Shown: positions 7,072-51,557, counted from the stretch's first letter. The stretch: DNA of 64,000 bases from Patescibacteria group bacterium (GCA_028710985.1 JAQTTB010000001.1:19280-83279), one strand, 5' to 3'. A program made the numbers and translations. Notes: generated from the sequence alone by a model not told the origin.

Positions 7072-7112
7072 AAAAGTACGAGTCGTCTATATGCAACCCG
7101 TACTTTTTTTAT
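7069..7112. terminator. bidirectional rho-independent terminator between convergent genes
   Basis: aaaaAGTACGagtcgtctatatgcaacCCGTACTtttttt. The stem is flanked by an A-run and a T-run. Confidence 0.55.
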
Positions 7113-8275
7113 TTTACCAACTCCAGCAATTTGCTGATATAATTTTCCAGTCCATATTCCGCCACCGTCTTCCGACAGGCCTCGCTCATGCCCGCAAGCC
7201 GCGCCGGATCCGCTATGAACGGCTTAATTTTCGCAAGCAGCTCGTCTTTCGCCCCCGGCGTAAAAGTCCACCCGTTCTCCCCTTGGCGCACGAGCTCCCC
7301 GGCTCCGCCAATGCGCGATACAAGCACCGGCACTCCGGCAGCCAGGCTCTCGGAGATTACGGCCGGCGAATTCTCGTAGCAAAATGACGGCACGATGGCG
7401 AGATCCGCCCCGGAAAAAAGTCGTCCAATCTCTTCACGCGGCCGCGGACCTAAAATATTTATTCGCGCATCGCCCGCGGCGATTTTTTTTATTTCTCCAA
7501 GATCCGAACCACCACCCGCAACCGCAAGATGCCAATCGCCGGGCAGATCCTTAAGGGTTTCAACCAGCCACCGCGCGCCCTTGTGTTTCTCAATCTGGCC
7601 GAGATACAGCAGATTAAGCCCGGGGTGCAATATTTTTTCCGCCATCCCTGCCAGGGGCGCGGGATTCGGCAAAACCTCAACGCGCGAGTCTTTAAAAAAT
7701 CCCTTATTTTTATAAAATTCCGCGAGCCAGCGCGACGGCGAAACAATGAGCCGCGGCGAACCAAAAAGCCGGCGCGAGTACGCTTCCCAGATCTTCCGCA
7801 CGAACGAACGCTCCGCCTTTGCTTCTTCCCCCCAGAGCATGAGTCCGTTCGGCGCAGAAAGCTGAATGTCGTGTGCCACGTGCACCCAGCGCTCGCTCTC
7901 TGCCTTGAGCGCCAAAACTCCGAGCATGCCCAGGCCCCTAAGATTATGGCTTACGATAAGATCCGGCACTTCTTCCCTAATCGCGCGCCGCATCATGCCC
8001 AAACCCGCAAGGCTCATGGCGTCCAGCGCGTGCCAGATCGCGCGCGCCGCAAAACCGTGCTCTCCGATATTTTTATACCAAAAAATATTAAGCGGAAAAA
8101 AGCGGCAAATTTTAATGCCATCCGCCTTGTCGCAGGCAAAACCGCGCGGACCGCTCGAGAGCACCGCCACCTCGTGCCCGGCATCGCGAAACCCGCGCGC
8201 CTGGAGTTCAGCCACCCGCTCGGCTCCGCCCCGCGCCTCGGGCGGATACAAATTTGAGACAATCAGAATCTTCAT
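7109..8275 (-). CDS. glycosyltransferase family 4 (GT-B)
   Basis: MKILIVSNLYPPEARGGAERVAE N-terminus. C-terminal EX7E-type region (FCYENSPAVISESLAAGVPVL). Confidence 0.8.
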   Translation of the reverse strand: MKILIVSNLYPPEARGGAERVAELQARGFRDAGHEVAVLSSGPRGFACDKADGIKICRFFPLNIFWYKNIGEHGFAARAIWHALDAMSLAGLGMMRRAIREEVPDLIVSHNLRGLGMLGVLALKAESERWVHVAHDIQLSAPNGLMLWGEEAKAERSFVRKIWEAYSRRLFGSPRLIVSPSRWLAEFYKNKGFFKDSRVEVLPNPAPLAGMAEKILHPGLNLLYLGQIEKHKGARWLVETLKDLPGDWHLAVAGGGSDLGEIKKIAAGDARINILGPRPREEIGRLFSGADLAIVPSFCYENSPAVISESLAAGVPVLVSRIGGAGELVRQGENGWTFTPGAKDELLAKIKPFIADPARLAGMSEACRKTVAEYGLENYISKLLELVK

Positions 8276-9420
8276 AATTTAAAATATTGCCCACGCATCT
8301 TCCCGACGATTACCGGCCAGGTAAATTCCGCCTCAATCCTCTCGCGCGCCCGCTCCCCCATTTCTTTTACACTCTCCGGATCCGCGGCCATATCGTTAAT
8401 CGCCTTGGCAAGGCCGTTAACATCCTTCGGCGCCACCAGCGCGCCGGTTCTGCCGTCCTGCACCACATAGCGCACGCCCGGAAGACTGCTCGCGATCACC
8501 GGTTTTCCGCAGGCGCCGGCTTCGAGCGCCACGAGCCCGTAGGCTTCGGATTTATCAACCGAAGGAAATGTGAGCGCGTCGGCCAAATTATAATATTGCG
8601 GCAATTCGCGGTCATCCACTCCCCCGGCAAAAAATACGCGCTCCCCCAGGCCGGCGGAGGCGACGATCTGCTCAAACTCCGGCCGGCGGTCGCCGTCTCC
8701 CACGACAAGCAATTTAATCTTTTTATCTTTGACTGTCTTTACTGCCTCAATCAATTTATCCAGTCCCTTGAAATAATGCGCGCGGTCCAATCCGCCGACA
8801 AAGAGCAGGACAAAATCGCTGGCTAGAATATTATATTTTACGGCGAGCGTCTCCAGCCGGTGGCCGGGCGAAAAAAATTTCTCGTCCACCCCGAGATTTG
8901 AAACCACGAATTTTTCCGGATCCTGAGCCACGAATTTCGCCAGATCCCCGGCCTGGGCGTAATCAAGCGTGGATACAAAAACCTTATCCGCGGCCGCGAG
9001 AATCCGCCGCAAAAATAACCGCCGGTATAATCTGAAAAACAACCCTATTGCTCCCCTTCCTACCGTATCCATATGATACGTAACAACCAGTTTGTTCTTT
9101 TGTTCTTTTGTTCTTTTGTTCTTTTTCCAAAAAAGAGCCGCTTCCGCTCCGCCAAAAAACGGATAGTGCAAATGAACGACATCAAATCCGTCCAGCATGT
9201 CCGCAAGATGCGGCACCCAGGCGGCATTGCCGTAGCGGATGACCGGCTTAAGATAAATTACGTTAAAATCAAACTTCAGCCGCTCGGCTCCCCGGGGCGT
9301 CGGGCAAAACACCGTCACCTCGTCGCCGAGACGCGCGAGCTCGCGCGCGTGCGCGTATGCCACGTTGCCCATACCGCCGCGATAAGGAGGAAATGTCGAT
9401 GTGATTATCGCTATCCTCAT
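8272..9420 (-). CDS. glycosyltransferase family 4 (GT-B), with lysine-rich insertion encoded by an 8-bp x4 tandem repeat
   Basis: MRIAIITSTFPPYRGGMGNVAY N-terminus. GLVALEAGACGKPVIAS motif. 4-bp overlap with the downstream GT4. Confidence 0.8.
   Translation of the reverse strand: MRIAIITSTFPPYRGGMGNVAYAHARELARLGDEVTVFCPTPRGAERLKFDFNVIYLKPVIRYGNAAWVPHLADMLDGFDVVHLHYPFFGGAEAALFWKKNKRTKEQKNKLVVTYHMDTVGRGAIGLFFRLYRRLFLRRILAAADKVFVSTLDYAQAGDLAKFVAQDPEKFVVSNLGVDEKFFSPGHRLETLAVKYNILASDFVLLFVGGLDRAHYFKGLDKLIEAVKTVKDKKIKLLVVGDGDRRPEFEQIVASAGLGERVFFAGGVDDRELPQYYNLADALTFPSVDKSEAYGLVALEAGACGKPVIASSLPGVRYVVQDGRTGALVAPKDVNGLAKAINDMAADPESVKEMGERARERIEAEFTWPVIVGKMRGQYFKL
9092..9123. repeat. perfect tandem repeat TTGTTCTT x4 (8-bp unit) inside GT4 CDS 8272..9420
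   Basis: ttgttctt ttgttctt ttgttctt ttgttctt read directly from the sequence. It encodes KNKRTKEQKNK on the minus strand. The unit length is not a multiple of 3. Confidence 0.9.
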
Positions 9421-9439
9421 AAATTAATCAGCTTCGATG

Positions 9440-9590
9440 CCTTGTTTGGTTTAGTCAAAAGTTAAAAGTCAAAAGTCCAAAGTCAAGTCTAAAATTTTTT
9501 AGTCCAATCTCTCCAGCTGAATGTATCTATAACTTTTTGACTTTTAACTCAACTTTTAACTTTAGACTTTAGACTTTTAACTACAAAACA
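9440..9590. repeat. long imperfect inverted repeat made of AAAGTC/TAAAAGT-type short repeats, located between two co-directional GT genes
   Basis: Left arm agtcaaaagttaaaagtcaaaagtccaaagtcaagtctaaa. Right arm ctttttgacttttaactcaacttttaactttagactttagacttttaac. Confidence 0.6.
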
Positions 9591-9593
9591 AAC

Positions 9594-10712
9594 CTACCAA
9601 AATATAATTAGTCGTGCAATTAAAAAATAAAGATTAAACAACGGATTAGCGATTTTAAGCGCCCAATTATTAATTTCCTGATACTCAATCTTCCCTGTGA
9701 AATGACGAAGCACTTCTTTATCCCCGATACTTCTCGCGCGCGCGATTCTCGCGTGCTTGACGAAGAGATACGGCCAGTGCCACGGCGCGATCATCCAAAG
9801 ATATGCCTTAAGCTTCTCGCGCCACCAGCCGGACTTGATGGAAAAAATAAACTGCCCGAGCTCCATCGCGAGAAAGGCCGGCAGAAACACGAGCTGGGTC
9901 AGAAATTTATAATCGCAAAAATATAAAATAAAACGATTTCGCTCCATCCAGTAATATTTTGAAATACTCCGGCTGAATTCATATTCGTGATACACAACCG
10001 ACCGCGGCGCGAGCACGTTCACGAACCCGCCAAGCCGGAGCCGCCAGCCCAGATCCAGGTCTTCGTGATACGCAAAAAGTTTTTCATCAAAAAGCCCGGC
10101 ATCGCGCAAGGCGCCGATCTTGTATAAAACCCCGGCTCCGGAGCCGTAAGCAATTTCCGGAAGCCCGATAAAATCGCGTTCGCTCCGCGCCGCGCGCGAA
10201 CCGCCGCAAAATCCGAATCCCAGATAATGAATCATGTTGCCCGACGAATTAATGAGTCCGCGCTCGGGCCAGAGCGCGAGCAGAGACTGCACCGAACCGA
10301 TTTTCTGATTTGATTCCGCCGCATCGACGGCATGGCGCAAAAAATCCGGCTCAACCCGCGTATCGTAATTTATTAAATAAACATAATCAAAACCCTGCAC
10401 CTGCCTGCCGGTAGGCAGGGCCATTGCATACTCAATCGCGCGGTTGTTTCCGCCGGCAAAGCCGAGATTCGTGTTCATGGGCATAAAGTGAATCTTCGGC
10501 AGCCCCTGGGGCGGCGACTGCATTATCTCCAGAATGCGCTCGCGCGACCCGTCGGTTGACGCATTGTCAACAATAACAAGCTCAACCGCCTCCCGCGGAT
10601 AATCCAAGAGCGCGAGCGATTCAATCCAGGCATCTAAAAAACGCCGCGCCTTCCAGAGCACGGCGATAATTGCCACTCGTTTTACATCCTGATTATTCAT
10701 GCTTTTTTGCAT
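9594..10712 (-). CDS. glycosyltransferase family 2 with C-terminal membrane extension
   Basis: VAIIAVLWKARRFLDAWIESLALLDYPREAVELVIVDNASTDGS is a GT2 signature with a DxD region. The start is chosen at MQKSMNN (10712), giving a 20-nt overlap with the upstream DUF2304-like gene. The ORF track's 10838 start would give a 146-nt overlap. Confidence 0.7.
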   Translation of the reverse strand: MQKSMNNQDVKRVAIIAVLWKARRFLDAWIESLALLDYPREAVELVIVDNASTDGSRERILEIMQSPPQGLPKIHFMPMNTNLGFAGGNNRAIEYAMALPTGRQVQGFDYVYLINYDTRVEPDFLRHAVDAAESNQKIGSVQSLLALWPERGLINSSGNMIHYLGFGFCGGSRAARSERDFIGLPEIAYGSGAGVLYKIGALRDAGLFDEKLFAYHEDLDLGWRLRLGGFVNVLAPRSVVYHEYEFSRSISKYYWMERNRFILYFCDYKFLTQLVFLPAFLAMELGQFIFSIKSGWWREKLKAYLWMIAPWHWPYLFVKHARIARARSIGDKEVLRHFTGKIEYQEINNWALKIANPLFNLYFLIARLIIFW

Positions 10713-11037
10713 CTTCACTCTTCTCTCCCACCGCGATTTCGCGGGTAATTTTTGTGATATTTTTTTCGATTGACTGAATTTTAATGAATATTCTGAACGC
10801 GAGATAAAATAACAGCACGATTGAAAGATATGTCGCAAGATCCGCGCCGCGCTCGACTCCGAACCAGGCCGCCGCCACGTCGGTTTTCTTTGGGATTACC
10901 GCCGCCGCGCTGACCGCAATCCAAAACAAAAGCCAAACCGCGAGCCATCCGGCGGTAATGTCTTTTGATCGGTACTTGCGGAACGCTCTCCAGGCCGCAA
11001 TCGCCGCAAATAATATAATAACCGCTTGAATTATCAC
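10693..11037 (-). CDS. small membrane protein, DUF2304-like (commonly paired with GT2 in CPR-type glycosylation modules)
   Basis: 114 aa with three hydrophobic helices and a charged C-terminal tail. Located between two GT2 genes. Confidence 0.55.
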   Translation of the reverse strand: MIIQAVIILFAAIAAWRAFRKYRSKDITAGWLAVWLLFWIAVSAAAVIPKKTDVAAAWFGVERGADLATYLSIVLLFYLAFRIFIKIQSIEKNITKITREIAVGEKSEDAKKHE

Positions 11038-11705
11038 AAAAATTTATTTAATAAATAATCCCAGACTATTTTTAACGAGCCGAGCGATCTCTGTCCTTTC
11101 GCCAGGCTTTCCGGCGTGTATTTAACCGTTACCGGCACTTCGACATATCTTAATTTGTTCCTTCCGATTTCGTCAAGAATTTCCGAAGCGTGAGCCATTC
11201 TGTCCTGGGTAATTTTAATCTTCTCGGCCGCCTCACGGCTCAATGCGCGGAATCCGTTATGCGTGTCTGTGACCCTAAGCCCGGAAGTCAAACGGGTAAA
11301 AATTATACCACCCATAAGCACGAGCTGGCGCAAAGCCGGCACATTGGATTTTTTTCCCAAAAACCGCGAGCCCAGCGCCACATCCGCCCCGCCAAGAATA
11401 ATCGGCTTCACCATCTCGTCAATCTCTTCGGCCAGATGCTGGCCGTCAGCATCATAATGCACGATAATATCCGCGCCCAGGCTCCGGAGAGTGAATTCGG
11501 TACCCGTGGCAAGAGCCGCCCCCTGTCCACGGTTAATCACGTGACGCAGTACCACCGCTCCGGCCGTTCTTGCGACTTCAGCCGTCGCGTCGGTTGAACC
11601 GTCATCAACAACTACGGCGGCATCAATATGCGGCTTTATATCTTCTATGACTTTCGTGATAGAAGCCTCCTCGTTGTAAGCTGGTATTACTGCTACTATT
11701 TTCAT
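11034..11705 (-). CDS. glycosyltransferase family 2, dolichyl/polyprenyl-phosphate sugar synthase-like (DPM1-like)
   Basis: MKIVAVIPAYNEEASITKVIEDI...VVDDGSTDAT...DADGQH are GT2-A motifs. Soluble, 223 aa. Confidence 0.8.
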   Translation of the reverse strand: MKIVAVIPAYNEEASITKVIEDIKPHIDAAVVVDDGSTDATAEVARTAGAVVLRHVINRGQGAALATGTEFTLRSLGADIIVHYDADGQHLAEEIDEMVKPIILGGADVALGSRFLGKKSNVPALRQLVLMGGIIFTRLTSGLRVTDTHNGFRALSREAAEKIKITQDRMAHASEILDEIGRNKLRYVEVPVTVKYTPESLAKGQRSLGSLKIVWDYLLNKFL

Positions 11706-11729
11706 AAAACTACTTTCGCATCAATATTA

Positions 11730-11962
11730 TCGTCATTCCCGCGAAGGCGGGAATCCAGAAACAGTATACCTTGCGGATTCGATTTATAAACTGTCACACA
11801 AATCACTCCAAAGCGGATTGCAGTCTTCAATGAATTTAATCTTTTAGACCCTTTCCACTTATTGGAGGATGCAAATATAGAACTGCCGATAATCGGACAT
11901 AGCATAAATAAGTAGCCCCGAGATTAATTGGTTGTGGATTCCCGCCTTCGCGGGAATGACAG
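11730..11962. mobile_element. MITE-like 233-bp element with 26-bp terminal inverted repeats of the REP-like palindrome CGTCATTCCCGCGAAGGCGGGAATCC
   Basis: cgtcattcccgcgaaggcgggaatcc at 11730..11755 and its reverse complement ggattcccgccttcgcgggaatgac at 11936..11960. The interior is non-coding and AT-rich. The only ORF across it, 11702..11905, is the typical LDSRLRGND translation artefact of this palindrome. Confidence 0.6.
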
Positions 11963-11964
11963 TT

Positions 11965-12978
11965 CTAAATCCCAACCAACCCCTTCTGCACCCTTGAAAA
12001 ATCAATCGTCTTTTGAAGGCCCTCCTCAAGCCGCACGAGCGGAATCCAGTCTAGCCTCTCTTTGGCTTTGGTGATATCCGGAAGCCCAAGTTCGGTCATG
12101 AAAAGAAGCGGGGGTTCATGTTTGATTTCCGAGGATGAATTCACCATGGCGATTATTTTCTTTGCCACGTCGGCGAGCAGGAAATCCTGGTCCGATCCGA
12201 GATTCACGGGCCCGATATCCGCCGGCGCCTGCATCAGGCGCTTCAGCCCGTCAACAATATCCGAGACAAAACACAGGCTTGTTTTAAAACTTTCATCGCC
12301 GTAAATAACCAGTTCTTTGCCGTCAAGCGCGTCGGTGATAAAATCCGGTATCATCTGGCCGTCAAAAAGTTTCATGCGCGGCCCGTAGGTGCGGAAGATA
12401 CGCGCAATTTTCGCGTCGATCCCAAAAACTTGACTATAAGTCGCGACCATTGCTTCAGCGAAGCGCTTTCCCTCATCATAACAGGCGCGAGGCGAAATGG
12501 TTGAAACCCCGCCGATTTCATCTTCCCGAAAAGAAAGATGCTCTTCTTTGCGCCCTCCATAAATTACCGAACTGGATGTAAAGAGAAATTTTGCTTTGTA
12601 CTTCACCGCGATATCCAGGGCGTGCCTTGTTCCGACCGAGTTGGAAAGCGCGGTCTGCAGCTTAAATTCATCAAATCGTTTCGCCGATGTCGGACAGGCC
12701 AGATGATAAACTTCCTGAATTCCCTGAAAACGCAATTTGAACCTCTCAAGCTCGGGAAATGATTCCAGATCAAACGGTTCGTTGGTATCCAGCCGCAGAA
12801 ATTCAAAATCCGGATTCTGCATCAACCGGTCAATGTTTGATTCCGAGCTCGTCACAAAATTATCAATACAAATAACCTTGGCTTCATCCAAAAGCGACTC
12901 GCAGAGGTGTGAACCGATAAATCCGGCCCCGCCGGTGACAAGCACATTTTTCTTCTCAAATATGGGCGAAATTGGCAT
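11965..12978 (-). CDS. NAD-dependent epimerase/dehydratase, UDP-glucuronate decarboxylase (UXS)-like
   Basis: VLVTGGAGFIGSHL Rossmann motif. Short-chain dehydrogenase YxxxK region. 337 aa. Confidence 0.75.
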   Translation of the reverse strand: MPISPIFEKKNVLVTGGAGFIGSHLCESLLDEAKVICIDNFVTSSESNIDRLMQNPDFEFLRLDTNEPFDLESFPELERFKLRFQGIQEVYHLACPTSAKRFDEFKLQTALSNSVGTRHALDIAVKYKAKFLFTSSSVIYGGRKEEHLSFREDEIGGVSTISPRACYDEGKRFAEAMVATYSQVFGIDAKIARIFRTYGPRMKLFDGQMIPDFITDALDGKELVIYGDESFKTSLCFVSDIVDGLKRLMQAPADIGPVNLGSDQDFLLADVAKKIIAMVNSSSEIKHEPPLLFMTELGLPDITKAKERLDWIPLVRLEEGLQKTIDFSRVQKGLVGI

Positions 12979-13096
12979 AATTTTTGTATTTATTTTATCA
13001 AGTTTATATGTATATTTTAGACGAAATCACGCTTTTTGGCAAGGAGCGAGAATAATAATAAAACGAGCCGATTAAAGCCCGCTTTGTTCCATTGTT

Positions 13097-13552
13097 CTAT
13101 TGTTTTATTGTTCTCTTAAAAATGAATATTTTCTGAAAAAAGAAATTAATAAAATAGAGAATGGCATACACCACAAATTTTGCCGCCACGTCCCAGATTC
13201 CGAGGTAATGCACCGTGACAAACAGCAGGCCTTCGCCGATCAAAAAAACCACAAGCGCGTTAATCCAATAAACCGCATACTGCCTGACCACGCGCTTATC
13301 CGTATCGCCGAAAGTATAAGTCTTGTTAAACCAATAACCCACGATCGCGCCGAGCGTCATGCTCACAAAATTCGCCAAAAGATAATGTATGCCGAAAATT
13401 TTTGTGAGCAATAGATACGTCCCAAAATCAACGCCGGTCGCCCCGGTCCCCACGATCGTGAACCGCCACAGCTGTTTGATGGTTTGAAAAAGATTTGATT
13501 TTTGAGATATATTTTTGAGATTTGAGATTTGAGATTTGAGATTATCTTCCAT
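13097..13552 (-). CDS. GtrA family membrane protein (putative polyprenyl-phosphate-sugar flippase component)
   Basis: FTIVGTGATGVDFGTYLLLTKIFGIHYLLANFVSMTLGAIVGYWFNKTYTF is a GtrA-like four-helix core. The N-terminal 20 aa are encoded by a 7-bp x4 repeat. The true start may be an internal TTG. Confidence 0.65.
   Translation of the reverse strand: MEDNLKSQISNLKNISQKSNLFQTIKQLWRFTIVGTGATGVDFGTYLLLTKIFGIHYLLANFVSMTLGAIVGYWFNKTYTFGDTDKRVVRQYAVYWINALVVFLIGEGLLFVTVHYLGIWDVAAKFVVYAILYFINFFFQKIFIFKRTIKQ
13515..13542. repeat. perfect tandem repeat TTGAGAT x4 (7-bp unit) at the 5' end of the GtrA CDS, inside the GtrA/WbaP divergent promoter region
   Basis: ttgagat ttgagat ttgagat ttgagat, preceded by a degenerate tttgaga copy at 13501. 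Read directly from the sequence. Confidence 0.9.
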
Positions 13553-13613
13553 ACTCTTGAAATTTTATCTAATATTAGTTAATATATGCCCACAAGCACA
13601 TATATTATCTCCT

Positions 13614-19177: not shown

Positions 19178-19178
19178 A

Positions 19179-22406: not shown

Positions 22407-22408
22407 AT

Positions 22409-26050: not shown

Positions 26051-26054
26051 ATAA

Positions 26055-26981: not shown

Positions 26982-27080
26982 ATTTTTTTATAATCCACCG
27001 GAAACTGCTTCTCATAAATTGGCAATAAATAATCAAATTTTCCCCACTGATATCCGAATCTCTCTTCAGAACCCATACAT

Positions 27081-28913: not shown

Positions 28914-28919
28914 AGATAC

Positions 28920-29327: not shown

Positions 29328-29346
29328 CTTGAAAAAATTAATAAAG

Positions 29347-30783: not shown

Positions 30784-30800
30784 AACTGGATTTAAAATGT

Positions 30801-33418: not shown

Positions 33419-33430
33419 ATTTTATGAAAA

Positions 33431-34159: not shown

Positions 34160-34166
34160 AACTTTA

Positions 34167-40265: not shown

Positions 40266-40267
40266 AT

Positions 40268-41396: not shown

Positions 41397-41789
41397 ATGG
41401 GCGAAACTATCAAATCATTTGAGGACTTGCTCGTTTGGCAAGAGTCGCACAAGCTCATGATTGACGCTTATGGGTTCGCGGACCGCTATTTGCCGCCGGA
41501 AGAAAAATACAATCGCATTTCTCAAATAAAACGCTGTTCAAGCTCAATCCCTGCCAATATCGCCGAAGGTTATGGTCGATTTCATTTCTTGGAAAATATC
41601 CAATATTGCCGGCAAGCCCGAGGTTCACTTGATGAACTTAAAAACCACATCATCGCCGCCCGAGACCTAAAGCAGGCTCCTCCGGAAGAATGTGCCAAAT
41701 TTATCCAAAAATGCAATTATGTACGGGCTATCCTAAATAACTACATTAACAAAACTCATGATCTCTATATTGAAAATAAGCAAAAATAG
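41397..41789 (+). CDS. four-helix-bundle protein (23S rRNA intervening-sequence protein family)
   Basis: LLVWQESHKLMIDAYGF...IPANIAEGYGRF is a conserved signature of this family. 130 aa. Confidence 0.7.
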   Translation: MGETIKSFEDLLVWQESHKLMIDAYGFADRYLPPEEKYNRISQIKRCSSSIPANIAEGYGRFHFLENIQYCRQARGSLDELKNHIIAARDLKQAPPEECAKFIQKCNYVRAILNNYINKTHDLYIENKQK

Positions 41790-43416: not shown

Positions 43417-45660
43417 TTATTGCCCCGCCTTCGCTTCTTTCTCGTCAATCATTTTCAGAAACTCATCCGTATCCGCGGATATTGAGGGATCCAACTGTTT
43501 GGCAATATTCGCGTACAACCGCGCGAGCTCATACTCCCCGACTTCAAAATATGCCGCCGCAATACCGGCATATAACCGCGGATCGTTTTCATCAATATTG
43601 TCAATCGCAAAATTATAAAGTTCAATCACCCTCGGCATATTGCCGGCTTTAGCATTAAGTTCAACCATCGCCGCCACTTCCGGAAGATTTACCGGATGTC
43701 CGCCGATTGATGCCGATTTTTCAAATGCCTCAAGTGCTTTATCTTCCCACTCGGCCTCATAGTATGCAATACCTAAATTCCACCATGACTCCGTGACATT
43801 GGGATCGAGGTTCACTGTCTCCAGATAATACTGGACAGCCTCATCGGTGCGGCCAAGATTCAAGAGCGCCTTACCGCGCACAAAACGCAACTGCTGACGA
43901 TCGGGAGAATACCTTAGCGCCTCATCAATGTCCGCGAGCGCCTGTTCATGGTGCGTCGGATCAATCTTACCAAGCTCGAGCTGAATCAAGCTCATGAGAT
44001 AATAATTATATATATTCATGGGATGAAGCGGCACAGTTGCCTTTAGCGCATCGTATGATCGCTCAAGATACTCAGCGAGCTCATCGCTTGGCATTTGCAT
44101 TGAGCGGCTAATTTGCGCCATCTCTCGGCTATAGTAAAGAGGAACCAAATCCGGATATTGGTTTGAGATAGCCATGCCTTTTTCAAATGCTGCGGCCGAA
44201 CCTTTATAATCCCCTGCCTGTGACGCAATCACTCCGCTCCGCACCCAGGTGGAAGCAAACGCGGTCCGAAAAGTAAATAAATACAAAACCGCAAACGAAA
44301 AAATTATCAAGACCGCGAGCCACGCTCCGGCAACGGCTGGAGTATTGATAAACAATCTTCCCTCTTTTTTCGGTTCGGTTGTCTCGCTCTGCCACCAGGC
44401 CAGGCAGAAATAAAACATAATCAATGCATTCGGCTGGTCAAAGATAAAAAGATTTTGCACGAAATATCCGATCAGAATTCCAATTGAGCCGCAATAAATA
44501 TGGGTATCGATTTTACCGCCCTTGAAGGCTTTGGTGAGCTGAATGATTATGAGAGCGAATAAGGCGAGATATGCCGCCGTACCGACCACGCCCGTATTAT
44601 TCAGCATATCCATCATCTGGTTATGCGCATGGTCAAACCATGTTTCGTAGAACGAAAACTCCAGTGACTTTGGATTGTAGTATTTATTGAAAGTATAAAA
44701 ATAATTTTCCGGACCCCAACCAAAAACCGGACGCTCCAAGAATCCCTTCCACGCGATTTCCCAAGCAATAAAGCGCGTCGCCGCCGTGCCACCGGTTAAC
44801 GAAATATCTCGGAAGCGATTGAGGCCGGGAACCTGCGCGGTCCAGGCCTGATCTTTAATCAGCCAAAATCCAGCCGACGCAAGGATTATTGCCAAAAATA
44901 TACCCGCGGAAATTATGCGGATCTTTTTATTATTTTTAAGTATTGCGTAAAGCGCGAGATACACGAGCCCGGCGAGAAAAACTCCAACCATTGCGCCGCG
45001 TGTTTCGGCGAAAAGAAAAGCCAAGAACTGTATTGCGAGCATGGCTCCCCACATTGCCTTGGTTGACCACCGCACGGCTTTTTGCAGAAGAACGAGCGTA
45101 ATGAACATAGTGAAAATCAAATACGCAGCCAAGAAAATCGGATTATTCATAAACGCGCCGGTACGAGCGCCGGTTTGCAGCACCAATTCCGGCGCCACGC
45201 GCTGGATAAAAGCGACAAACGACAGCGCCACGCTCACACCCACATTGAAAATTAAAACTTTTTTCCATTCGCGCCAGCCGCGGAAAACCGAAATTGCCAT
45301 AAAATAAAACAGGAGATAATGGAGAAGCGGCCAAAAACCGGTCATACGTTCGTGATAACTCCAGAAGCTGCGATTCGAATCAACGCCAAAAATCACGGCT
45401 AAAAAAAGTCCGATGAAATACGCCGCAAGCCCGTACATAATAAGCGACCGCCGCGGCCGGTATTCCGGCTTGCGCGCGAGAAGATATATATACCACGGCA
45501 ACGCGCTCATGAGCACGATCATAAGATAGACCGTCTTGCCAAAAATATACGGGTAAACCGTCCATGGCAAAAAAATAAACGGCATCACGAGAGCCGCATA
45601 TACGCTAATTTTTACCCACCAATATGCGATGCGGTCCATTGTTTCAAGATTGTTATTCAT
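43417..45660 (-). CDS. O-antigen ligase (Wzy_C) family membrane protein with C-terminal TPR repeats, a candidate O-oligosaccharyltransferase (PglL/WsaB-like)
   Basis: About 12 TM helices with a large extracytoplasmic loop, typical of Wzy_C. The C-terminal roughly 250 aa contain TPR-like repeats (AYYEAEWEDKALEAFEKS, GRTDEAVQYYLETVNLDP). Confidence 0.65.
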   Translation of the reverse strand: MNNNLETMDRIAYWWVKISVYAALVMPFIFLPWTVYPYIFGKTVYLMIVLMSALPWYIYLLARKPEYRPRRSLIMYGLAAYFIGLFLAVIFGVDSNRSFWSYHERMTGFWPLLHYLLFYFMAISVFRGWREWKKVLIFNVGVSVALSFVAFIQRVAPELVLQTGARTGAFMNNPIFLAAYLIFTMFITLVLLQKAVRWSTKAMWGAMLAIQFLAFLFAETRGAMVGVFLAGLVYLALYAILKNNKKIRIISAGIFLAIILASAGFWLIKDQAWTAQVPGLNRFRDISLTGGTAATRFIAWEIAWKGFLERPVFGWGPENYFYTFNKYYNPKSLEFSFYETWFDHAHNQMMDMLNNTGVVGTAAYLALFALIIIQLTKAFKGGKIDTHIYCGSIGILIGYFVQNLFIFDQPNALIMFYFCLAWWQSETTEPKKEGRLFINTPAVAGAWLAVLIIFSFAVLYLFTFRTAFASTWVRSGVIASQAGDYKGSAAAFEKGMAISNQYPDLVPLYYSREMAQISRSMQMPSDELAEYLERSYDALKATVPLHPMNIYNYYLMSLIQLELGKIDPTHHEQALADIDEALRYSPDRQQLRFVRGKALLNLGRTDEAVQYYLETVNLDPNVTESWWNLGIAYYEAEWEDKALEAFEKSASIGGHPVNLPEVAAMVELNAKAGNMPRVIELYNFAIDNIDENDPRLYAGIAAAYFEVGEYELARLYANIAKQLDPSISADTDEFLKMIDEKEAKAGQ

Positions 45661-45661: not shown

Positions 45662-47620
45662 TTATTTTATTTCAACGGCATTAATATTGTCAAAAACGCC
45701 ACTGATAAAGCGCAGATTAATTTTATTATTATAAATTTCCGCGATGGCGATTCTCACCTCTCCGACAATATAGTCATAAAATGCTTTCAAGTCAAACTGA
45801 TTCGCCTGCGTCGCCCAGTTTGCGCTGCGGAGGAACGCGCCATTCCGATCGAATGATTTTATATATATATTTCCGTCTGTTTTATAAGTAACCAGTATCT
45901 CTTCTTCTTCGCCCGTATCCAAATTTTGCGTCGCAACGAATATTGGCCCCGTGATTTTCTCTGCCGCTTGAAAATTTGAAACCAAGACGCCACTCTTCCT
46001 AAATATCTTAATATGCAAAACACCGGCATCAATAAATCCCACGATTATTTCATCCGTGTCATCGGCATCAATATCTCCAGCCGTGACCGTAACGCCGCCG
46101 CGAAAACCAGAAGTATACGCCATAAAATTACCCTGAATTTCCCCTCTTTCATTAAACACTAGTATATGCGGACCGCCGCCCGGACCCGGCGCGGTGATAA
46201 TTTCATCGTTCACCGTCCGGCTGTCCACATTTCCGACGGCGATATTCACGCCACCGCGGAAAAGCGAATTATACGCAAAAAATTGTCCGTACAATTTCCC
46301 TGTCTCGCTAAAAATACGCACCTGCGGACCGCCGCCCGGACCCGCGCCGACCACAATTTCTTTTTGACCGTCATTATTTACGTCGCCGCTCTGAGCCGTG
46401 AACCCCTTTTTGAAACTATCCGGAAACACCGCGAAGCTATCTTTGACTTCCCCGCCGCTCCCAAGCTCACGGACAACCGGCGTAAAACCAAGCGGCGCAC
46501 CGATTACAAGCGATGAACCGCTCTTTGCCGCTTCAAGCGCCAACTCAAGCGCAGCGCGCGCATCCACGCGCGTTCCCAAGCCTCCGGCAAAATCCGGATT
46601 GATCCCGTCAATTATCACGCCGCTTTTTACCAAAATTTCATTGATTTCACGAGCCGAGAGCCCGGGCGCGATTGATTTCACGAGTGCGGACACGCCGGAA
46701 ACAATCGGCGCCGCAAACGAAGTGCCCGACCAATCGTCATCATAGAATGTATCAAAATCCGCAATTGCCGAGTTATAAACACGCGCGCTCCATATATCCA
46801 TGCCCGGTGCCGAAACATCAACGCAGGCTTTGCCAAAATTTGAAAATTTCGCTTTTTGATCCAACGTGTCGGTTGCCGCGACTCCAAGTACGTATATTTC
46901 ATTCTCATATTGATCAATGCACACCGGAAATTCATCGTACATATCCAAGTTCGAGCCGCCCGATTCGTCCGGCGTATTGCCGGCCGCCGCCACTACTACT
47001 ACTCCCGCTTCCCAGGCGCGGCGCACCGCAGTTGACATATCCTCGCTAAAATTAAAACCTACAAAACTCAAATTAATCACATCCGCACCATTTCGAATGG
47101 CGTAATAAATCGCTTTTGCCACATTGTCCGAGAATCCGTTACCCGTGGCATCGAGCACCTGAAGCGGCATTATCTTGCTCTCCCAGGTGATTCCGGCCAT
47201 GCCGTTCCGATTATTCCCTTCGGCTGCGATGATGCTCGCCACCGCCGTGCCATGGCTAATTCCCTCTTCCGCATATCCGTTGGAAAAATTCGGCAATATA
47301 TTTCCGTTATTATCCGAGAAATTCCATCCATTCACATCATCAATATAATCATTCTTATCATCATCGATTCCGTTTGCCGGAATTTCATCTTCATTGATCC
47401 AAGCATTGCCATCCAATTCCGGATGCGAAATATCCACGGCCGTATCAATCACTGCGACAATCACCTTCGGACTGCCGGTCGAAATATCCCAGGCGCGTTC
47501 GGCATCAATCTGACGCAAATACCACTGACGCGAAAAATCCGTATCGTTTGGGGTGAAAGCCTGCGCGCCTTGAACCGCAACGAATACAAAAATTATTGTG
47601 CAGAATATAAACTTTTTCAC
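45662..47620 (-). CDS. S8 family serine peptidase (subtilase) with signal peptide and C-terminal FG-GAP/VCBS-like repeats
   Basis: Catalytic triad contexts VIDTAVD, HGTAVASIIAA and GTSFAAPIVSG. Repeated DxDxDG...GGGPxxxxF modules. Confidence 0.85.
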   Translation of the reverse strand: MKKFIFCTIIFVFVAVQGAQAFTPNDTDFSRQWYLRQIDAERAWDISTGSPKVIVAVIDTAVDISHPELDGNAWINEDEIPANGIDDDKNDYIDDVNGWNFSDNNGNILPNFSNGYAEEGISHGTAVASIIAAEGNNRNGMAGITWESKIMPLQVLDATGNGFSDNVAKAIYYAIRNGADVINLSFVGFNFSEDMSTAVRRAWEAGVVVVAAAGNTPDESGGSNLDMYDEFPVCIDQYENEIYVLGVAATDTLDQKAKFSNFGKACVDVSAPGMDIWSARVYNSAIADFDTFYDDDWSGTSFAAPIVSGVSALVKSIAPGLSAREINEILVKSGVIIDGINPDFAGGLGTRVDARAALELALEAAKSGSSLVIGAPLGFTPVVRELGSGGEVKDSFAVFPDSFKKGFTAQSGDVNNDGQKEIVVGAGPGGGPQVRIFSETGKLYGQFFAYNSLFRGGVNIAVGNVDSRTVNDEIITAPGPGGGPHILVFNERGEIQGNFMAYTSGFRGGVTVTAGDIDADDTDEIIVGFIDAGVLHIKIFRKSGVLVSNFQAAEKITGPIFVATQNLDTGEEEEILVTYKTDGNIYIKSFDRNGAFLRSANWATQANQFDLKAFYDYIVGEVRIAIAEIYNNKINLRFISGVFDNINAVEIK

Positions 47621-47701
47621 AGGCTAAAAATTCATAAGTTATACGGATATGATACCATTTTTGCGCAAAAAATACACACTCATGCCATCCATCCCCAACC
47701 T

Positions 47702-47739
47702 AAATCCCGCCCCCGGGCGTCCCCAGGGGCGGGATTTTT
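47702..47739. other. GC-rich stem-loop AAATCCCGCCCC-N12-GGGGCGGGATTTTT between the surface-protein gene and the S8 peptidase gene
   Basis: 12-bp perfect stem. The T-run lies on the plus side only. It could be an attenuator or an mRNA-stabilising hairpin. Confidence 0.4.
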
Positions 47740-47777
47740 GAGTTACTGAATATTGCCGATTACTCGGCCAGTCAAGA

Positions 47778-50700
47778 CTAGAAGGTCAATACCACGTTTT
47801 CGGTGAGATCCTTGACGAGATACTCGTCAGTCCAATCACCGGTTGACAACGTATCTAATTGAGCGTTGTGCGGTATTGCCGCCTTGTCTGACCAGACAAG
47901 GTAAGCAGCAACTTCGCCACCCACTACACCGGTTGCATCCAAGTTCGGACCACGTACGGTGCCGACCGCGGCTGCATTCAGGTGATAGGTGTAGATGGTT
48001 GAGCTGCCAGTCTTAATAGTTACGTTAAGCGACTCGCTGGAGCCTGCACCGCCAACCGTACCCTTGAGGGTAAAGATGTGGCCGGAGCCAGAAATGCTCT
48101 GCTCTGTGCCGCTCGTGTAACTAATAAAGATTGTGCCCGAGGCATCGGTTGCGCCTTCAACAGTATTGCCGAGGTTATCAGTGATGGTAACCAAATCGGA
48201 AATATCTGTACCGTCCTGGAACCACTTCAAGGTATCAACCGTGAACGCACCGCTCTTAGTGAATTCGAATGTGAGTTTCGCGACACCCGCATCGCCTGCA
48301 CTGTCTGCGGTAACCTTGGTCTTGTAGAGTTCAATCGTACCGTTGGCCAGGCTCGAGCTAGCTAACGCTTGCTTGGCAAAAGTAAGCTTGGTCTTGCGGA
48401 TAACCATTGGGTTGCCCGCGAGGACCGCCGAGGCCGCCGCGTACACGCGCTCGCCGGACATGGCGCCCGTGCCCTTCACATTGTAACTATTGGTATAGTT
48501 CGCATCCCACTCGCCGGTCGTAACATTGTATTCAACCGCGAGTTTCGGGTTGTTGCCCGAGGTTGCGCCTGCGTCAATCGCGTTCAGCTTGCCAACCACC
48601 TGGAAGGTCACACTGCCGTCAGCCGGCACGGTGATCGGGGTGGAAAGCGTGATGTCGGTCGCCGTCGCCGAACCCGGGAACACATCCGTGCCCGAGGAGA
48701 CGATTACGCCGTCCTTCTGAATCGCGAGGTACTTGAAGTCACTATTTGCGCCGCCGCTATAGCGTTGCAGGCGGATCTTGTCAACGGAGATATTTTCGTA
48801 CTGTGAAGTAATCTTGGCTTGGGCAAAGGTTGTCCAAGCATCCTTACCGGCAATGACAATGTCGGTTGACGGATTTGATTCCGCCGCGATTGTCAATGTA
48901 CCGGAATTCTTCACAGTCTGGAAGATTGTCGGACCGTTGTTGATCGGATTGCTCCAAGTCACGTCGCCGTCAGTCGCAGTAACTGAATTGGCATCTGCGT
49001 CTTCGGCCGAAATATCGGTTTCGAGAGCAATACCGACCCAGAATGTGTCATCCGTACCGCCGGAAGTCGCCACTGAATCAAGTATTGCCTTGACAACCAA
49101 TGTCTTGGTTTCACCCGCCGGAATGCTATAGCTGAGACCGTCAAATGTGGCGGTACCCGCCGTTGCATCCGGGCTCTCGGCCGTGCCGAGCTGAGTCGTG
49201 CCATCCCACAGCGTAAGCTGGGTAATGACATCGTCCAGTTGAGCCGCGGTATAACCCGCACCGTTCACATTGCCCTGACCAGTGACTTTAACGCTCGTCA
49301 CTTTGATTGCGCTCTGTGAACCAGCTGTGAACACAAAACCAGATGAAGCAACATCTGATGTCTTCTTGACATAGGTGTCACTCACCGGAGTCGCGGCCAG
49401 CTGAACTGTCAGACTCGATGTCTTGACCGTCATGGTGTTGCCGGTAATAACCGCATTCGGCACGATTTGGGTTACAGCGAGATATTCGCCTGTGGCATTG
49501 TTCTTCACATAATCGGCAGCAAAGGCATTCAACTTGGCCACATATTGGCGATCGCTGTTGAACCAGGCGTTGTTTGCCACATCGGCCTTGAGGGCCAAAT
49601 TCTTGGTTGTGCCCGCGTTCACATAAAATGAATCGCTAACCACCCAAGTGCAAGTAGTTGCATCCTCACCACAGGCGGGACTTCCGCTTGAAAGTTGAGT
49701 CGGACCGGCGACAACTTCGCCGGAATCGGTATCAACTAATTTGATGTCAGTGAACAGATCTGTGGTGGATGCGTCAATGTAGTCATCACCATTGATACCT
49801 GCCAGTGTGAAGCTGATCTTGCGGACCTCGAGAGTGTTCTCGGCCGCAGTCATGCCAAACTGGAAGAAGATCTGATCCTGGCCGGCCTTTGGCATAGTGC
49901 CAGTCGCCGGACCATTGTAAGCGATCGTCAATTGACCGCCCTCGGTATTCGTGGTTACTGAATCGCCGCTATCAAAATCATCAATGTTCACTGCCGCGCC
50001 CCAGCCATAGGTATTATCTGTGGCATCGACATCGGTAGTGTACTCAAGATAGGTAATGATAGAGCGGCCGCCCTTGCCCACGACATCGGCCTTGACATAA
50101 AGAGTCTTGGTTGTGCCGTTGGAAATGAGATAAGGCGTGGCGAGGATAAAGTTTATCTTATCGCCGACAATTGTCGCTGTTTCGGCCACTAATTCTGTAC
50201 CAACATACAGCTTCAGGTTGGTAACGTCGCTGTTCACGACCGTACCGGCCTGAGCGATGCTGATTTGATTAAGCTTAATATCCGCGCTTGCGGCAGTAAG
50301 CTTAAATGAAGAAATCGTGGCTGCAAGTGATCCAACTGTTACGTTGGCCGGATCTGAACCTTCATTCACCGTCAGAGTGGCGGCATCCTGTGCACCAACC
50401 GTGAAGGTGTTGCCGCGTATCGGGAAACTGCCCGAAACCGTGGCGGTTGTGCCAACCTTACTCGTCGCAACGAGCTCTAGGGCATGTTCATCCGCAGCTA
50501 TTGCGGTTGAACTCAAATCGCCGCGGACCGTGAGATACTTGGTCGTGCCGGCGGTAATCGTCAAGTTCAGGTTGTTGAATTGAGCCTCGTTTGAGCTGGT
50601 ATTGATACTGCGACCGCTCGTCAGTCTTGTTGAACCCTCATAGAGGTAGACGTTCGTGAAGTCGCTCGCTGTACCAACGCCAAGGCGATGGAATGTCAGG

Positions 50701-51557
50701 GTATTAAGAATGACATTGCCGTCCGAGCTCGCGGTCACAGCGACCTTAATAAGCTGCACGCTTGACGAACCCTGGGCGACAGTTGCGCCCGCCGGGGTGT
50801 CAGAGGCCAAGGCCACGGCAAGACCGGTGCCTGTGCCGGAAACGCCGGCTACAAGATCCGTAATGCCCGCTTCACCGCCGGTAACCGCGGTTCCGTCCGC
50901 ATAAGTTACATCGGCCGCGACTGGGCTAATTACGAAACGCCATTGGAACATGTTGGCATCAAATGCCGCCTCGTTCGCAATTGCGCGCTTCTGACCATCC
51001 TGAATGTAGTAGACGGATGCACCAGAAGCATACTTAATCAAGCATCCATTCGGATGCACATAAGTGCTGATTGAGGTGCCGATTGAATAGTTGGTGAAGA
51101 ATGAATCCGGAACGTCAACTACCCAGCTGGCCCAATTTGTTCCCCAGAGTTTCTGGGCAACGGCCTCGGTCTCAACCCAATGCAAAACACCGCCGGTCGT
51201 CACGGCATAAACCTTGGGATCGGTGGTAATTTTGATTAGGAATGTACCTGGGCGGATTGTGATATTTCCGCCGATAGAGACTGCCGCGAGTTCCGCGTCA
51301 GTGATCTCTTTCAGGGTTGAGAAATCGGGGTACCATGAATAATAGGTGTTCTCGTTCGGGAAAACGTATCTCTTACCATCTGCTGCGTAATAATACACCG
51401 CCGGTTGGCTGGCCTTAATAAGGTCGCCTGCGGACAAGGTCGCTGCTTCCGCTGCCAAAGGCATTATGAAAGCCGCAAAACCGATTGACCACGCCATGGT
51501 GGTGATAACTACGCCAACGGTAAGGATCCTCTTTGAAATGCGTAGAACTTCAGTCAT
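47778..51557 (-). CDS. giant secreted cell-surface protein (1259 aa), Thr/Ser/Ala/Gly/Val-rich, a candidate S-layer or surface-layer glycoprotein
   Basis: Signal peptide ending AEAA. Low-complexity beta-rich repeats. GC content is about 55%, far above the neighbouring island. A long structured leader lies upstream. Confidence 0.7.
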   Translation of the reverse strand: MTEVLRISKRILTVGVVITTMAWSIGFAAFIMPLAAEAATLSAGDLIKASQPAVYYYAADGKRYVFPNENTYYSWYPDFSTLKEITDAELAAVSIGGNITIRPGTFLIKITTDPKVYAVTTGGVLHWVETEAVAQKLWGTNWASWVVDVPDSFFTNYSIGTSISTYVHPNGCLIKYASGASVYYIQDGQKRAIANEAAFDANMFQWRFVISPVAADVTYADGTAVTGGEAGITDLVAGVSGTGTGLAVALASDTPAGATVAQGSSSVQLIKVAVTASSDGNVILNTLTFHRLGVGTASDFTNVYLYEGSTRLTSGRSINTSSNEAQFNNLNLTITAGTTKYLTVRGDLSSTAIAADEHALELVATSKVGTTATVSGSFPIRGNTFTVGAQDAATLTVNEGSDPANVTVGSLAATISSFKLTAASADIKLNQISIAQAGTVVNSDVTNLKLYVGTELVAETATIVGDKINFILATPYLISNGTTKTLYVKADVVGKGGRSIITYLEYTTDVDATDNTYGWGAAVNIDDFDSGDSVTTNTEGGQLTIAYNGPATGTMPKAGQDQIFFQFGMTAAENTLEVRKISFTLAGINGDDYIDASTTDLFTDIKLVDTDSGEVVAGPTQLSSGSPACGEDATTCTWVVSDSFYVNAGTTKNLALKADVANNAWFNSDRQYVAKLNAFAADYVKNNATGEYLAVTQIVPNAVITGNTMTVKTSSLTVQLAATPVSDTYVKKTSDVASSGFVFTAGSQSAIKVTSVKVTGQGNVNGAGYTAAQLDDVITQLTLWDGTTQLGTAESPDATAGTATFDGLSYSIPAGETKTLVVKAILDSVATSGGTDDTFWVGIALETDISAEDADANSVTATDGDVTWSNPINNGPTIFQTVKNSGTLTIAAESNPSTDIVIAGKDAWTTFAQAKITSQYENISVDKIRLQRYSGGANSDFKYLAIQKDGVIVSSGTDVFPGSATATDITLSTPITVPADGSVTFQVVGKLNAIDAGATSGNNPKLAVEYNVTTGEWDANYTNSYNVKGTGAMSGERVYAAASAVLAGNPMVIRKTKLTFAKQALASSSLANGTIELYKTKVTADSAGDAGVAKLTFEFTKSGAFTVDTLKWFQDGTDISDLVTITDNLGNTVEGATDASGTIFISYTSGTEQSISGSGHIFTLKGTVGGAGSSESLNVTIKTGSSTIYTYHLNAAAVGTVRGPNLDATGVVGGEVAAYLVWSDKAAIPHNAQLDTLSTGDWTDEYLVKDLTENVVLTF

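Follow-up and report, generated by a model that had tools for sequence, protein, structure and literature searches.

A candidate surface-protein O-glycosylation locus in a Patescibacteria genome, built like the S-layer glycosylation clusters of Gram-positive bacteria

We analysed a 64-kb stretch of DNA (hereafter, the window) from a Patescibacteria group bacterium, in which a Wzy_C-family membrane enzyme with fused tetratricopeptide repeats (hereafter, the Wzy_C/TPR enzyme; 43417..45660, minus strand) is encoded next to a 1259-aa secreted acidic surface protein (hereafter, the large protein; 47778..51557, minus strand), close to a large set of genes for glycan synthesis. An earlier note on this DNA had read the interval 7109..51557 as a surface-protein O-glycosylation system, with the large protein as the glycan acceptor. 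The 52 substantial open reading frames (ORFs) of the window were scanned against Pfam, and the key ORFs also against NCBIfam. The proteins encoded by the two genes are identical to the NCBI entries MDD4994904.1 (Wzy_C/TPR) and MDD4994906.1 (large protein) of a "Patescibacteria group bacterium" metagenome-assembled genome (MAG), and the guess of the earlier note that the DNA came from a lineage like the candidate phyla radiation (CPR) was thus right. The left flank of the window carries housekeeping genes (GAPDH, tsf, and rpsB), and from 7109 to 55229 nearly all genes are for glycan synthesis or the envelope. We regard the gene identities, the fold of the enzyme, its conserved residues, and the conserved pairing of its gene with that of the large protein as established.

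The Wzy_C/TPR gene encodes the fusion that had been described, with a match to Pfam Wzy_C (PF04932) of 72.6 bits (cutoff, 31.7) at residues 207-365 and TPR repeats besides. Wzy_C was matched by all 50 aligned homologues, and the profile built from them matched a solved WaaL ligase (E 6.4e-15). WaaL was also the best structural match, and the enzyme has the WaaL-type polytopic fold; a Foldseek comparison of the enzyme model with the PDB gave an output dominated by TPR matches. Four residues (R221, R296, D343, and H346) are invariant in the 50 homologues, down to 24% identity, and are predicted to lie on the outer face of the WaaL-fold catalytic domain. They presumably correspond to conserved residues of Escherichia coli WaaL. 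Wzy_C enzymes, O-oligosaccharyltransferases (O-OTases) included, depend on a conserved His (PMC9829042).

The AlphaFold model of the enzyme (pLDDT 93.9, pTM 0.90) has 13 transmembrane helices, in which short loops rich in Lys and Arg alternate with uncharged loops, obeying the positive-inside rule; WaaL has one helix fewer. Because of the 13th helix and these loop charges, the whole TPR superhelix (residues ~485-746) is predicted to stand outside the membrane, side by side with the catalytic loop (269-347), and the pTM of 0.90 points to a fixed arrangement of the TPR part relative to the membrane. This part is similar to the TPR superhelices with which the protein glycosyltransferases OGT and SPINDLY bind their substrates, and it carries a near-invariant SPxRQ motif (S585, P586, R588, and Q589). 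The GC content of the gene (47%) is that of the core genome.

The large protein begins with a Sec-type signal peptide (ending in AEA/A), and its mature form has a mass of 127 kDa and a pI of 4.4, with three Cys in the precursor. It is rich in Thr and Ser, as had been noticed from the sequence, with 21.5% of the two residues together (T 13.2%, S 8.3%) vs. ~10% in the neighbouring proteins. Neither Pfam nor NCBIfam gave a match to the full protein, and Pfam gave none to its isolated N-terminal domain. More than 1146 full-length homologues were found at 42-69% identity, all of them from Patescibacteria and all annotated as hypothetical. A structure prediction, which the earlier note had suggested, yielded an AlphaFold2 model (pLDDT 86) with a ~200-residue N-terminal alpha/beta domain, the most conserved part of the protein, followed by about nine beta-sandwich domains. 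The Foldseek search with this model returned generic multi-Ig matches (PrgB, alpha-2-macroglobulin, and integrin legs) at TM-scores of ≤0.21, and no functional lead. In two distant homologues (those of the loci L011 and L071, see below) the N-terminal domain is replaced by PG_binding_1 (above the gathering threshold), and because this peptidoglycan-binding domain stands in for it, we take the family to be anchored to the cell wall. Secretion, the acidic pI, the few Cys, the multiple Ig-like domains, and the wall anchor in relatives all speak for the S-layer type, and it is plausible that the large protein is an S-layer protein. An AlphaFold2-multimer survey predicted Patescibacteria S-layer proteins of similar size (1131-1274 aa; bioRxiv 10.1101/2024.05.28.596244), among them A0A1G2EN61, A0A1F5NRV7, A0A0G1WWP5, A0A1F4NSF7, and GMX59286.1. 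The further expectation of S/T-rich acceptor regions failed. Counting clusters of the two residues revealed none: Ser and Thr are spread evenly over the beta-sandwich chain, with no run longer than three, no Pro-rich linkers, and nothing mucin-like. Sequons were not enriched either (12 N-X-S/T vs. ~14 expected, and 5 D(S/T)(A/I/L/V/M/T)), and the idea of dedicated acceptor regions was dropped.

To place the pair in a wider context, we compared metagenome loci that encode relatives of the Wzy_C/TPR enzyme (L001-L011) and loci from species-representative genomes (higher L numbers). Relatives with an enzyme 56-66% identical keep one gene order, namely an extracytoplasmic function (ECF) sigma factor, a DUF5667 protein, the large protein, an S8 peptidase, the Wzy_C/TPR enzyme, and a divergent family 4 glycosyltransferase (GT4) with a 23S_rRNA_IVP gene. 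At ~30% identity (L006, L007, and L008) the order is kept minus the S8 gene, and the large proteins are true homologues; at 25-28%, L009 and L011 still pair a large-protein homologue with a Wzy_C/TPR enzyme, in L011 without glycan genes nearby. In total, eight of the nine informative metagenome loci (L001-L003, L006-L009, and L011) have a large-protein gene directly upstream of that for the Wzy_C/TPR enzyme. Among 80 species-representative genomes, 61 were informative, and in the other 19 the contig ends too soon. A large-protein homologue was found upstream on the same strand in 42 of the 61, in 32 of them within 1 kb. For this gene pair, related genomes thus show the synteny that the earlier note had proposed to look for. 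A chance adjacency of the two genes was rejected on account of this conserved synteny. The pairing is also kept in L011 and L071, where PG_binding_1 has taken the place of the N-terminal domain. As it survives both this exchange of the anchor and the absence of sugar genes, the link follows the beta-sandwich body of the large protein and not its anchor or the sugar genes.

Two further observations were made on these loci. Tandem Wzy_C(/TPR) paralogues, two to four in number, follow the large-protein gene in several of them, with four each in L013, L026, and L055 and three each in L027, L032, and L083; they also occur in L007 (7786-12235) and L009 (3569-10007), both with a separate ORF of ~230 aa that holds TPR repeats alone. 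Among the species-representative MAG records, many bear the title "uncultured Gammaproteobacteria bacterium" or "Candidatus Saccharibacteria". These titles look unreliable, because several of the "Gammaproteobacteria" loci, such as L021, L023, L044, and L078, carry the synteny of sigma factor, DUF5667 protein, large protein, and Wzy_C enzyme, and the homologues are otherwise restricted to Patescibacteria.

The genes that flank the pair were then assigned. The first gene of the module encodes the ECF-type sigma factor (53001..53546, minus strand; Sigma70_r2 and Sigma70_r4_2), with orthologues at the equivalent position in L001, L003, L006, L007, L008, and many genome loci. Next to it lies the gene for the DUF5667 single-pass membrane protein (51783..52991, minus strand; 44.6 bits; one transmembrane helix near residue 70), which is kept between the sigma factor gene and the large-protein gene in relatives and may be an anti-sigma-like partner of the sigma factor. 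The functional unit extends beyond 51557, where the interval of the earlier note had ended, at least to the sigma factor gene at 53546. Just after the stop codon of the large-protein gene, we found a GC-rich, terminator- or attenuator-like hairpin (47702..47737, minus strand; a perfect 16 bp) with a folding energy of -48.1 kcal/mol (z = -6.6), as well as which none of 200 shuffled sequences folded. The secreted subtilase that had been reported beside the Wzy_C gene is indeed there (45662..47620, minus strand; Peptidase_S8, 152 bits). It has an FG-GAP-like C-terminal region and scored 161.7 bits with a mycosin-like model, below the cutoff. Its gene is 1 nt apart from that of the Wzy_C/TPR enzyme and is optional, being present in the close relatives (L001-L003) and absent from L006-L008; that it takes part in maturing the large protein is a guess. 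A near-consensus sigma-70-type promoter (TTGACA, 18 nt, TAAAAT; 11/12) falls in the 3'-terminal part of the S8 gene, immediately ahead of the Wzy_C/TPR start (45664-45693, minus strand), and is a consensus match only.

On the other side, the border of the module is marked by the divergent GT4 gene (41855..43021, plus strand; Glycos_transf_1, 143 bits), an orthologue of which (35-60% identity) was found at the matching place in L001, L003, and L005-L008. Its conserved neighbour encodes a small 23S_rRNA_IVP-family protein (41397..41789, plus strand; PF05635, 98.7 bits), a four-helix bundle. This gene is kept by the divergent GT4 and Wzy_C/TPR genes in L001 (13659-14039), L003 (13920-14306/7559-7936), L005 (4307-4684), and L007 (12258-12629); in L003, the large-protein gene and the S8 gene are separated by a second copy. 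Beyond the interval of the earlier note, a GT4 gene identified by Pfam (54075..55229, minus strand) is conserved with the module in close relatives, sharing 73% identity with the first gene of L001 and 64% with that of L003. Further upstream, the window encodes two more proteins, one of them secreted, glycoside-hydrolase-like (GHL15), and furnished with FG-GAP repeats, the other DUF11-like and 550-630 aa long (57499-61574, minus strand; L006 1-3195; L008 1-3030). As these two genes are conserved neighbours upstream of the sigma factor and DUF5667 genes, the module may be larger. The TTG start (61574) listed for the GHL15 ORF, which gives a 122-nt overlap with the next GT4 gene, probably lies too far upstream.

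The glycan-building genes include an initiating polyprenyl-phosphate hexose-1-phosphate transferase, a large WbaP/WsaP-like phosphoglycosyl transferase (PGT; 13536..14993, or from the alternative start 13614, plus strand; Bac_transf, 208.5 bits; GC 50%). It scored 367 bits with TIGR03025 (EPS_sugtrans), above the cutoff of 295.55, and 217.9 bits with the WbaP-specific model against a cutoff of 403, so that the earlier label of a WbaP-type initiating transferase holds for a polytopic PGT in the broad sense and not for WbaP proper. The proposed Wzx-like flippase was recovered as such (16055..17308, plus strand; Polysacc_synt, 58.6 bits; ~9 transmembrane helices). A 261-aa membrane protein encoded beside it (17286-18071, minus strand) gave a weak match to CDP-alcohol phosphatidyltransferase (23 bits) and another to archaetidylinositol-phosphate synthase, and may serve to decorate the glycan with a phospho-alcohol. 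The left arm of the locus (7109..13552, minus strand) consists, from low to high coordinate, of two GT4 genes, two family 2 glycosyltransferase (GT2) genes, an NAD-dependent epimerase/dehydratase gene, and a GtrA gene (13097..13552, minus strand; Pfam), and its GC content is core-like apart from that of GtrA (41%). An NAD-dependent sugar epimerase/dehydratase gene (15039..15956, minus strand; Epimerase, 201.5 bits) lies between the PGT and Wzx genes. By Pfam, nine GT4 and four GT2 genes lie within 7109..51557, and the resulting count of 13 (16 in the whole window) falls short of the "at least 17" that had been claimed.

The stretch 16055..41254 forms a variable glycan island of low GC content (29-44%), with flanks of 47-57% GC and with the Wzy_C/TPR, S8, large-protein, and PGT genes at 47-53%. 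It carries the Wzx gene, seven GT4, two GT2, and five methyltransferase genes, a GtrA, an epimerase, a DUF218, an AsnB-like amidotransferase, a deacetylase-like, and a radical SAM/SPASM gene, and the genes for two polytopic proteins that match no family. Close relatives keep the core module at 48-73% identity, and their adjacent glycan genes reach no more than 33-48%, are missing, or in one case exceed the core in conservation; because of this pattern the island is a mosaic. A conserved enzyme and a conserved protein beside an exchangeable glycan island point to a ligase or OTase with relaxed glycan specificity, and not to a repeat-unit polymerase. The radical SAM/SPASM gene (36334-37338, minus strand; a relative has one too, L005 12169-12513) lies amid a run of GT4 genes, which suggests an unusual sugar or glycan modification. 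The Asn-synthase-like amidotransferase gene (27081-28913, minus strand) recurs in L006 (13689-15563), L008 (13677-15560), and L010 (3780-5639), and by analogy with wsfA in the S-layer glycosylation cluster of Paenibacillus alvei it hints at an amidated sugar.

Within the island, a Gtr-like three-part side-branch module (28920..33418, minus strand) comprises, in transcribed order, a 554-aa polytopic protein (31754..33418), a GtrB-like GT2 with C-terminal transmembrane helices (30801..31754), a double methyltransferase, and a GtrA (28920..29399; Pfam), all on the minus strand. The family of the 554-aa protein is very small, with 52 relatives among 1.84 billion representative proteins, and an Asp (Asp39) after the first transmembrane helix is invariant in it. 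DUF6798 occurs in its remote relatives, one of which is a GtrA fusion. A 568-aa polytopic protein (23518..25224, minus strand; ~10 transmembrane helices) is a weak paralogue with collinear similarity (E 0.003), and both proteins have a soluble C-terminal part of ~150 aa; the 568-aa protein is a candidate glycan-specific polymerase or extracytoplasmic transferase. A third such protein (698 aa; 4975..7071, plus strand; ~14 or more transmembrane helices) is encoded between rpsB and the first GT4 gene. Neither Pfam (E up to 1), NCBIfam, nor the PDB, searched with a single sequence or a profile, gave a match to any of the three. We call these proteins candidate transferases or polymerases and no more, because the remote DUF6798 relatives and the one GtrA fusion are the sole lead. 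Two statements of the earlier note were narrowed accordingly. The GtrA/GtrB/GT-C modules that it listed are present as two GtrA and one GtrB-like GT2, and GT-C is an inferred label for polytopic proteins that match no family. Wzy_C is the sole recognisable ligase-type domain, and to call the protein the only ligase-type enzyme is too strong because of the three polytopic proteins without a family.

Other envelope systems were sought among the same 52 ORFs. The Pfam scan revealed no genes for lipid A, the lipopolysaccharide (LPS) core, LPS transport, or an outer membrane, in line with the earlier remark that no LPS machinery was in view. No ABC transporter, Wzm/Wzt included, was found there, a Wzx-type flippase being present instead, nor a Wzz/PCP chain-length regulator or an export protein, and no LCP-type wall ligase was seen among the scanned ORFs. 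An Rfam scan of the window gave no RNA family.

We favour the reading of this region as a locus for the O-glycosylation of a surface protein, with an architecture like that of the slg (S-layer glycosylation) clusters in Gram-positive bacteria, and we put its probability at roughly 0.55. All parts of the pathway that it proposes were found in the window. Judging by its family membership, the WbaP/WsaP-like PGT (13536..14993) would start the glycan on polyprenyl phosphate, and the cytoplasmic GT4 and GT2 enzymes, the methyltransferases, and the other modifiers of the low-GC island would extend it. Wzx (16055..17308) would then turn the lipid-linked glycan outward, where the GtrA/GtrB-like GT2/polytopic modules may add side branches. 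Outside the membrane, the Wzy_C/TPR enzyme would act as an O-OTase and move the glycan onto its acceptor, which its TPR superhelix, kept outside by the 13th transmembrane helix, would dock. We propose the large protein as this acceptor, probably with the glycan in O-linkage and plausibly as an S-layer protein; this acidic 127-kDa beta-sandwich chain (47778..51557) would be anchored to the wall through its N-terminal domain. With the enzyme and the acceptor constant and the glycan genes exchangeable, the cells would wear a conserved protein coat with strain-variable sugars.

Several observations weigh against this reading. The Wzy_C family also holds lipid A-core ligases and polymerases, the sequence does not reveal the acceptor of such an enzyme, and TPR domains accompany polysaccharide export machinery too. 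The curated NCBIfam subfamilies IctB (38 bits) and PEP_O_lig_1 (36.7 bits) were matched far below their cutoffs. A search with hidden Markov models, which the earlier note had proposed, placed the enzyme in the Wzy_C family as expected, and no PglL-type accessory domain was among the Pfam matches returned for the query and its family. The query matched Wzy_C, TPR families, and one weak BTAD, and the PglL-type accessory domains PglL_A and Wzy_C_2 are not among the 25 commonest of the 41 Pfam families matched by the 50 members. PglL-type low-complexity Ser/Ala/Pro acceptor stretches are absent from the large protein, and Foldseek found no solved S-layer protein that resembles it. The likeness of the large protein to the S-layer proteins predicted in Patescibacteria is one of size, not of sequence comparison. 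The pairing is also not universal: in L010 the enzyme is encoded within a glycan cluster with no large protein nearby, and 19 of the 61 informative genomes, all among those with the most distant homologues, lack it.

Alternatively, the Wzy_C/TPR enzyme could ligate or polymerise a wall or membrane-anchored polysaccharide, an analogue of a secondary cell wall polymer or a lipoglycan. The large protein would then not be the acceptor, and the adjacency of the two genes would reflect joint building of the envelope, for example with the polymer anchoring or organising the protein layer. S-layer genes beside the wall-polymer genes csaAB in Bacillus anthracis are a precedent for such an arrangement. 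Wzy_C is the family of the WaaL ligases and of some polymerases, a WaaL is the best structural match, and the homologue in L010 stands inside a polysaccharide cluster. Moreover, an N-terminal domain that is the most conserved part of the large protein would suit an anchor bound to some conserved component of the wall, the job of an LCP-type wall ligase stays open in the window, and TPR domains are common in polysaccharide secretion scaffolds (PMC2943079). Against this, the pairing outlives the swap to PG_binding_1 in L011 and L071, a domain that binds peptidoglycan and not a special polymer, and in L011 it is kept in the absence of nearby glycan genes. The lack of lipid A/core machinery in the window and the reported monoderm nature of CPR cells (PMC6146748) count in the same direction, and dedicated pairs of OTase and acceptor genes are an established pattern (PMC9829042). 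We consider a wall or membrane-anchored polymer as the product to be somewhat unlikely. A WaaL-type LPS ligase was also considered and judged unlikely, given a window free of LPS genes, a monoderm lineage, and the TPR fusion.

The same enzyme might be the Wzy repeat-unit polymerase of a Wzx/Wzy-dependent capsule or exopolysaccharide, beside a large protein that is an unrelated adhesin. Some Wzy polymerases belong to Pfam Wzy_C, the normal partners of a Wzy polymerase (a WbaP-like initiator and Wzx) are in the cluster, and no other recognisable polymerase is annotated. However, polymerases are glycan-specific and encoded in the variable low-GC core of such clusters, whereas this gene has core GC content (47%), stands outside the island, and has orthologues beside differing glycan genes. 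The synteny with the large protein holds down to ~25% identity, the window ORFs include no Wzz/PCP regulator or export protein, and the two rare polytopic proteins of the low-GC island are better polymerase candidates, all of which makes this explanation improbable. More improbable still is protein glycosylation by the GtrA/GtrB-like GT2/polytopic modules, which would draw on polyprenyl-phosphate donors to attach sugars singly, as in the actinobacterial Ppm/Pmt O-mannosylation, and leave the Wzy_C/TPR enzyme to serve another acceptor. The two GtrA, the GtrB-like GT2 with its transmembrane helices, the polytopic proteins with an invariant Asp after the first helix, and the relative of the 554-aa protein fused to GtrA would fit it. 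These genes, however, lie in the low-GC island, which is variable, and the family of the 554-aa protein is a very rare one; being rare and variable, the modules cannot explain a pairing that spans the phylum. The polytopic proteins lack similarity to PMT or any other GT-C structure, and Gtr systems usually decorate glycans, which fits a side-branch role.

Taking the O-glycosylation reading further, a large part of the Patescibacteria might share an ECF-sigma-controlled module, in which a conserved wall-anchored S-layer protein is glycosylated by one or several tandem TPR-bearing Wzy_C OTases with glycans from hypervariable, horizontally exchanged low-GC islands. Such a coat, constant in its protein and variable between strains in its sugars, would be the CPR counterpart of the O-antigen and would govern host attachment and phage susceptibility in these episymbionts. 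We offer this wider picture tentatively, as a possibility that we doubt as a whole.

CPR bacteria account for a large part of bacterial diversity, their cells live attached to those of a host, and their envelope is known mainly from cryo-electron microscopy, which shows S-layers (PMC7906910) on a monoderm wall. In cultured Paceibacteria, the genes for secreted PG-binding/Ig-like proteins rank with those of highest expression (PMC10936435), which does not imply that they belong to the large-protein family. Our search for literature on O-antigen ligases, S-layer glycosylation, or protein glycosylation in CPR/Patescibacteria found nothing relevant, so the earlier claim that such a locus is undescribed for this lineage stands as far as CPR papers go. 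As a mechanism it is not new, Bacillota and Proteobacteria being known to use it. The locus offers candidates for the main surface protein (more than 1000 unannotated proteins of ~1300 aa), for the enzyme that would decorate it, and for a variable island that would set the surface sugars. If the O-glycosylation reading is true, Wzy_C-dependent S-layer glycosylation, genetically characterised in few Bacillota so far, would reach a deep-branching phylum, and the locus would offer a way into host recognition, phage resistance, and strain typing for organisms whose cultivation is just beginning. Should the product be a wall polymer instead, the conserved module would still mark core envelope-assembly genes of the group. 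The result is unsurprising in principle, and it yields candidates, open to testing, for the main components of the envelope in a very large and poorly understood group.

Among known systems, the solved WaaL of Cupriavidus metallidurans (PDB 7TPG/7TPJ) shares 12% identity with the enzyme, has 12 transmembrane helices and no TPR, and ligates to lipid A-core. Unlike the WaaL setting, the window has no lipid A/core genes, and CPR bacteria are described without an outer membrane (PMC6146748, PMC7906910). As in OGT and SPINDLY, and by analogy only, a TPR superhelix sits on a glycosyltransferase, which in those enzymes holds protein substrates; the catalytic folds and donors are unrelated, and the TPR similarity is generic and no proof of protein binding. 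The eukaryotic TMTC O-mannosyltransferases are a further analogy of TPR-bearing protein glycosyltransferases.

Like PglL, TfpO/PilO, PglS, and TfpM, the enzyme has a Wzy_C domain with the conserved His, and those enzymes transfer en bloc from a lipid-linked glycan with relaxed glycan specificity (PMC9829042). TfpO, PglS, and TfpM are pilin-specific O-OTases encoded next to the acceptor gene (PMC9829042), and here too the enzyme gene lies beside that of the putative acceptor (42/61 genomes; 8/9 metagenome loci). The Patescibacteria enzyme differs from all of them in its Pfam matches, among which no PglL-type accessory domain appears, and they have neither a TPR superhelix of ~280 residues nor a 13th transmembrane helix. 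Pilins or periplasmic proteins of low complexity serve as their acceptors, whereas here the putative acceptor is a 127-kDa beta-sandwich chain of a monoderm host.

The closest systems are the slg clusters of Geobacillus stearothermophilus NRS 2004/3a (SgsE, WsaA/WsaB, and WsaP) and P. alvei CCM 2051T (SpaA, WsfB, WsfP, and WsfA), likened to the present locus by gene architecture and not by the sequences of WsaB and WsfB. The slg clusters of Geobacillus and Paenibacillus encode a Wzy_C O-OTase (WsfB with C-terminal TPR; WsaB with a TPR-only neighbour, WsaA), a WbaP-like initiator, and an Asn-synthase homologue, and have a low-GC centre; in Geobacillus, the gene of the S-layer protein is a near neighbour with a transcript of its own (PMC2943079). 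The counterparts here are a Wzy_C enzyme predicted to be an O-OTase, with fused TPR as in WsfB (a TPR-only ORF like WsaA is found in L007 and L009), a WbaP/WsaP-like initiator (Bac_transf, 208.5; TIGR03025, 367 bits) with runs of glycosyltransferase and methyltransferase genes, an Asn-synthase homologue, and a strain-specific centre below the genome GC content (29-44% vs. 47-57% in the flanks). The gene for a putative structural protein is close by as in Geobacillus, here with a strong hairpin after it. In contrast to the slg clusters, the host belongs to the Patescibacteria and not the Bacillota, a Wzx flippase occurs instead of their ABC transporter Wzm/Wzt, and the putative acceptor family is unannotated and has no SLH domain. 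An ECF sigma/DUF5667 pair accompanies the genes, as does a subtilase in close relatives. Different here, then, are the phylum, the Wzx-type instead of ABC export, the long TPR superhelix fused through a 13th transmembrane helix, the sigma/DUF5667 pair, and the unannotated family of the putative acceptor, and the gene pairing, known there from few strains, is conserved phylum-wide.

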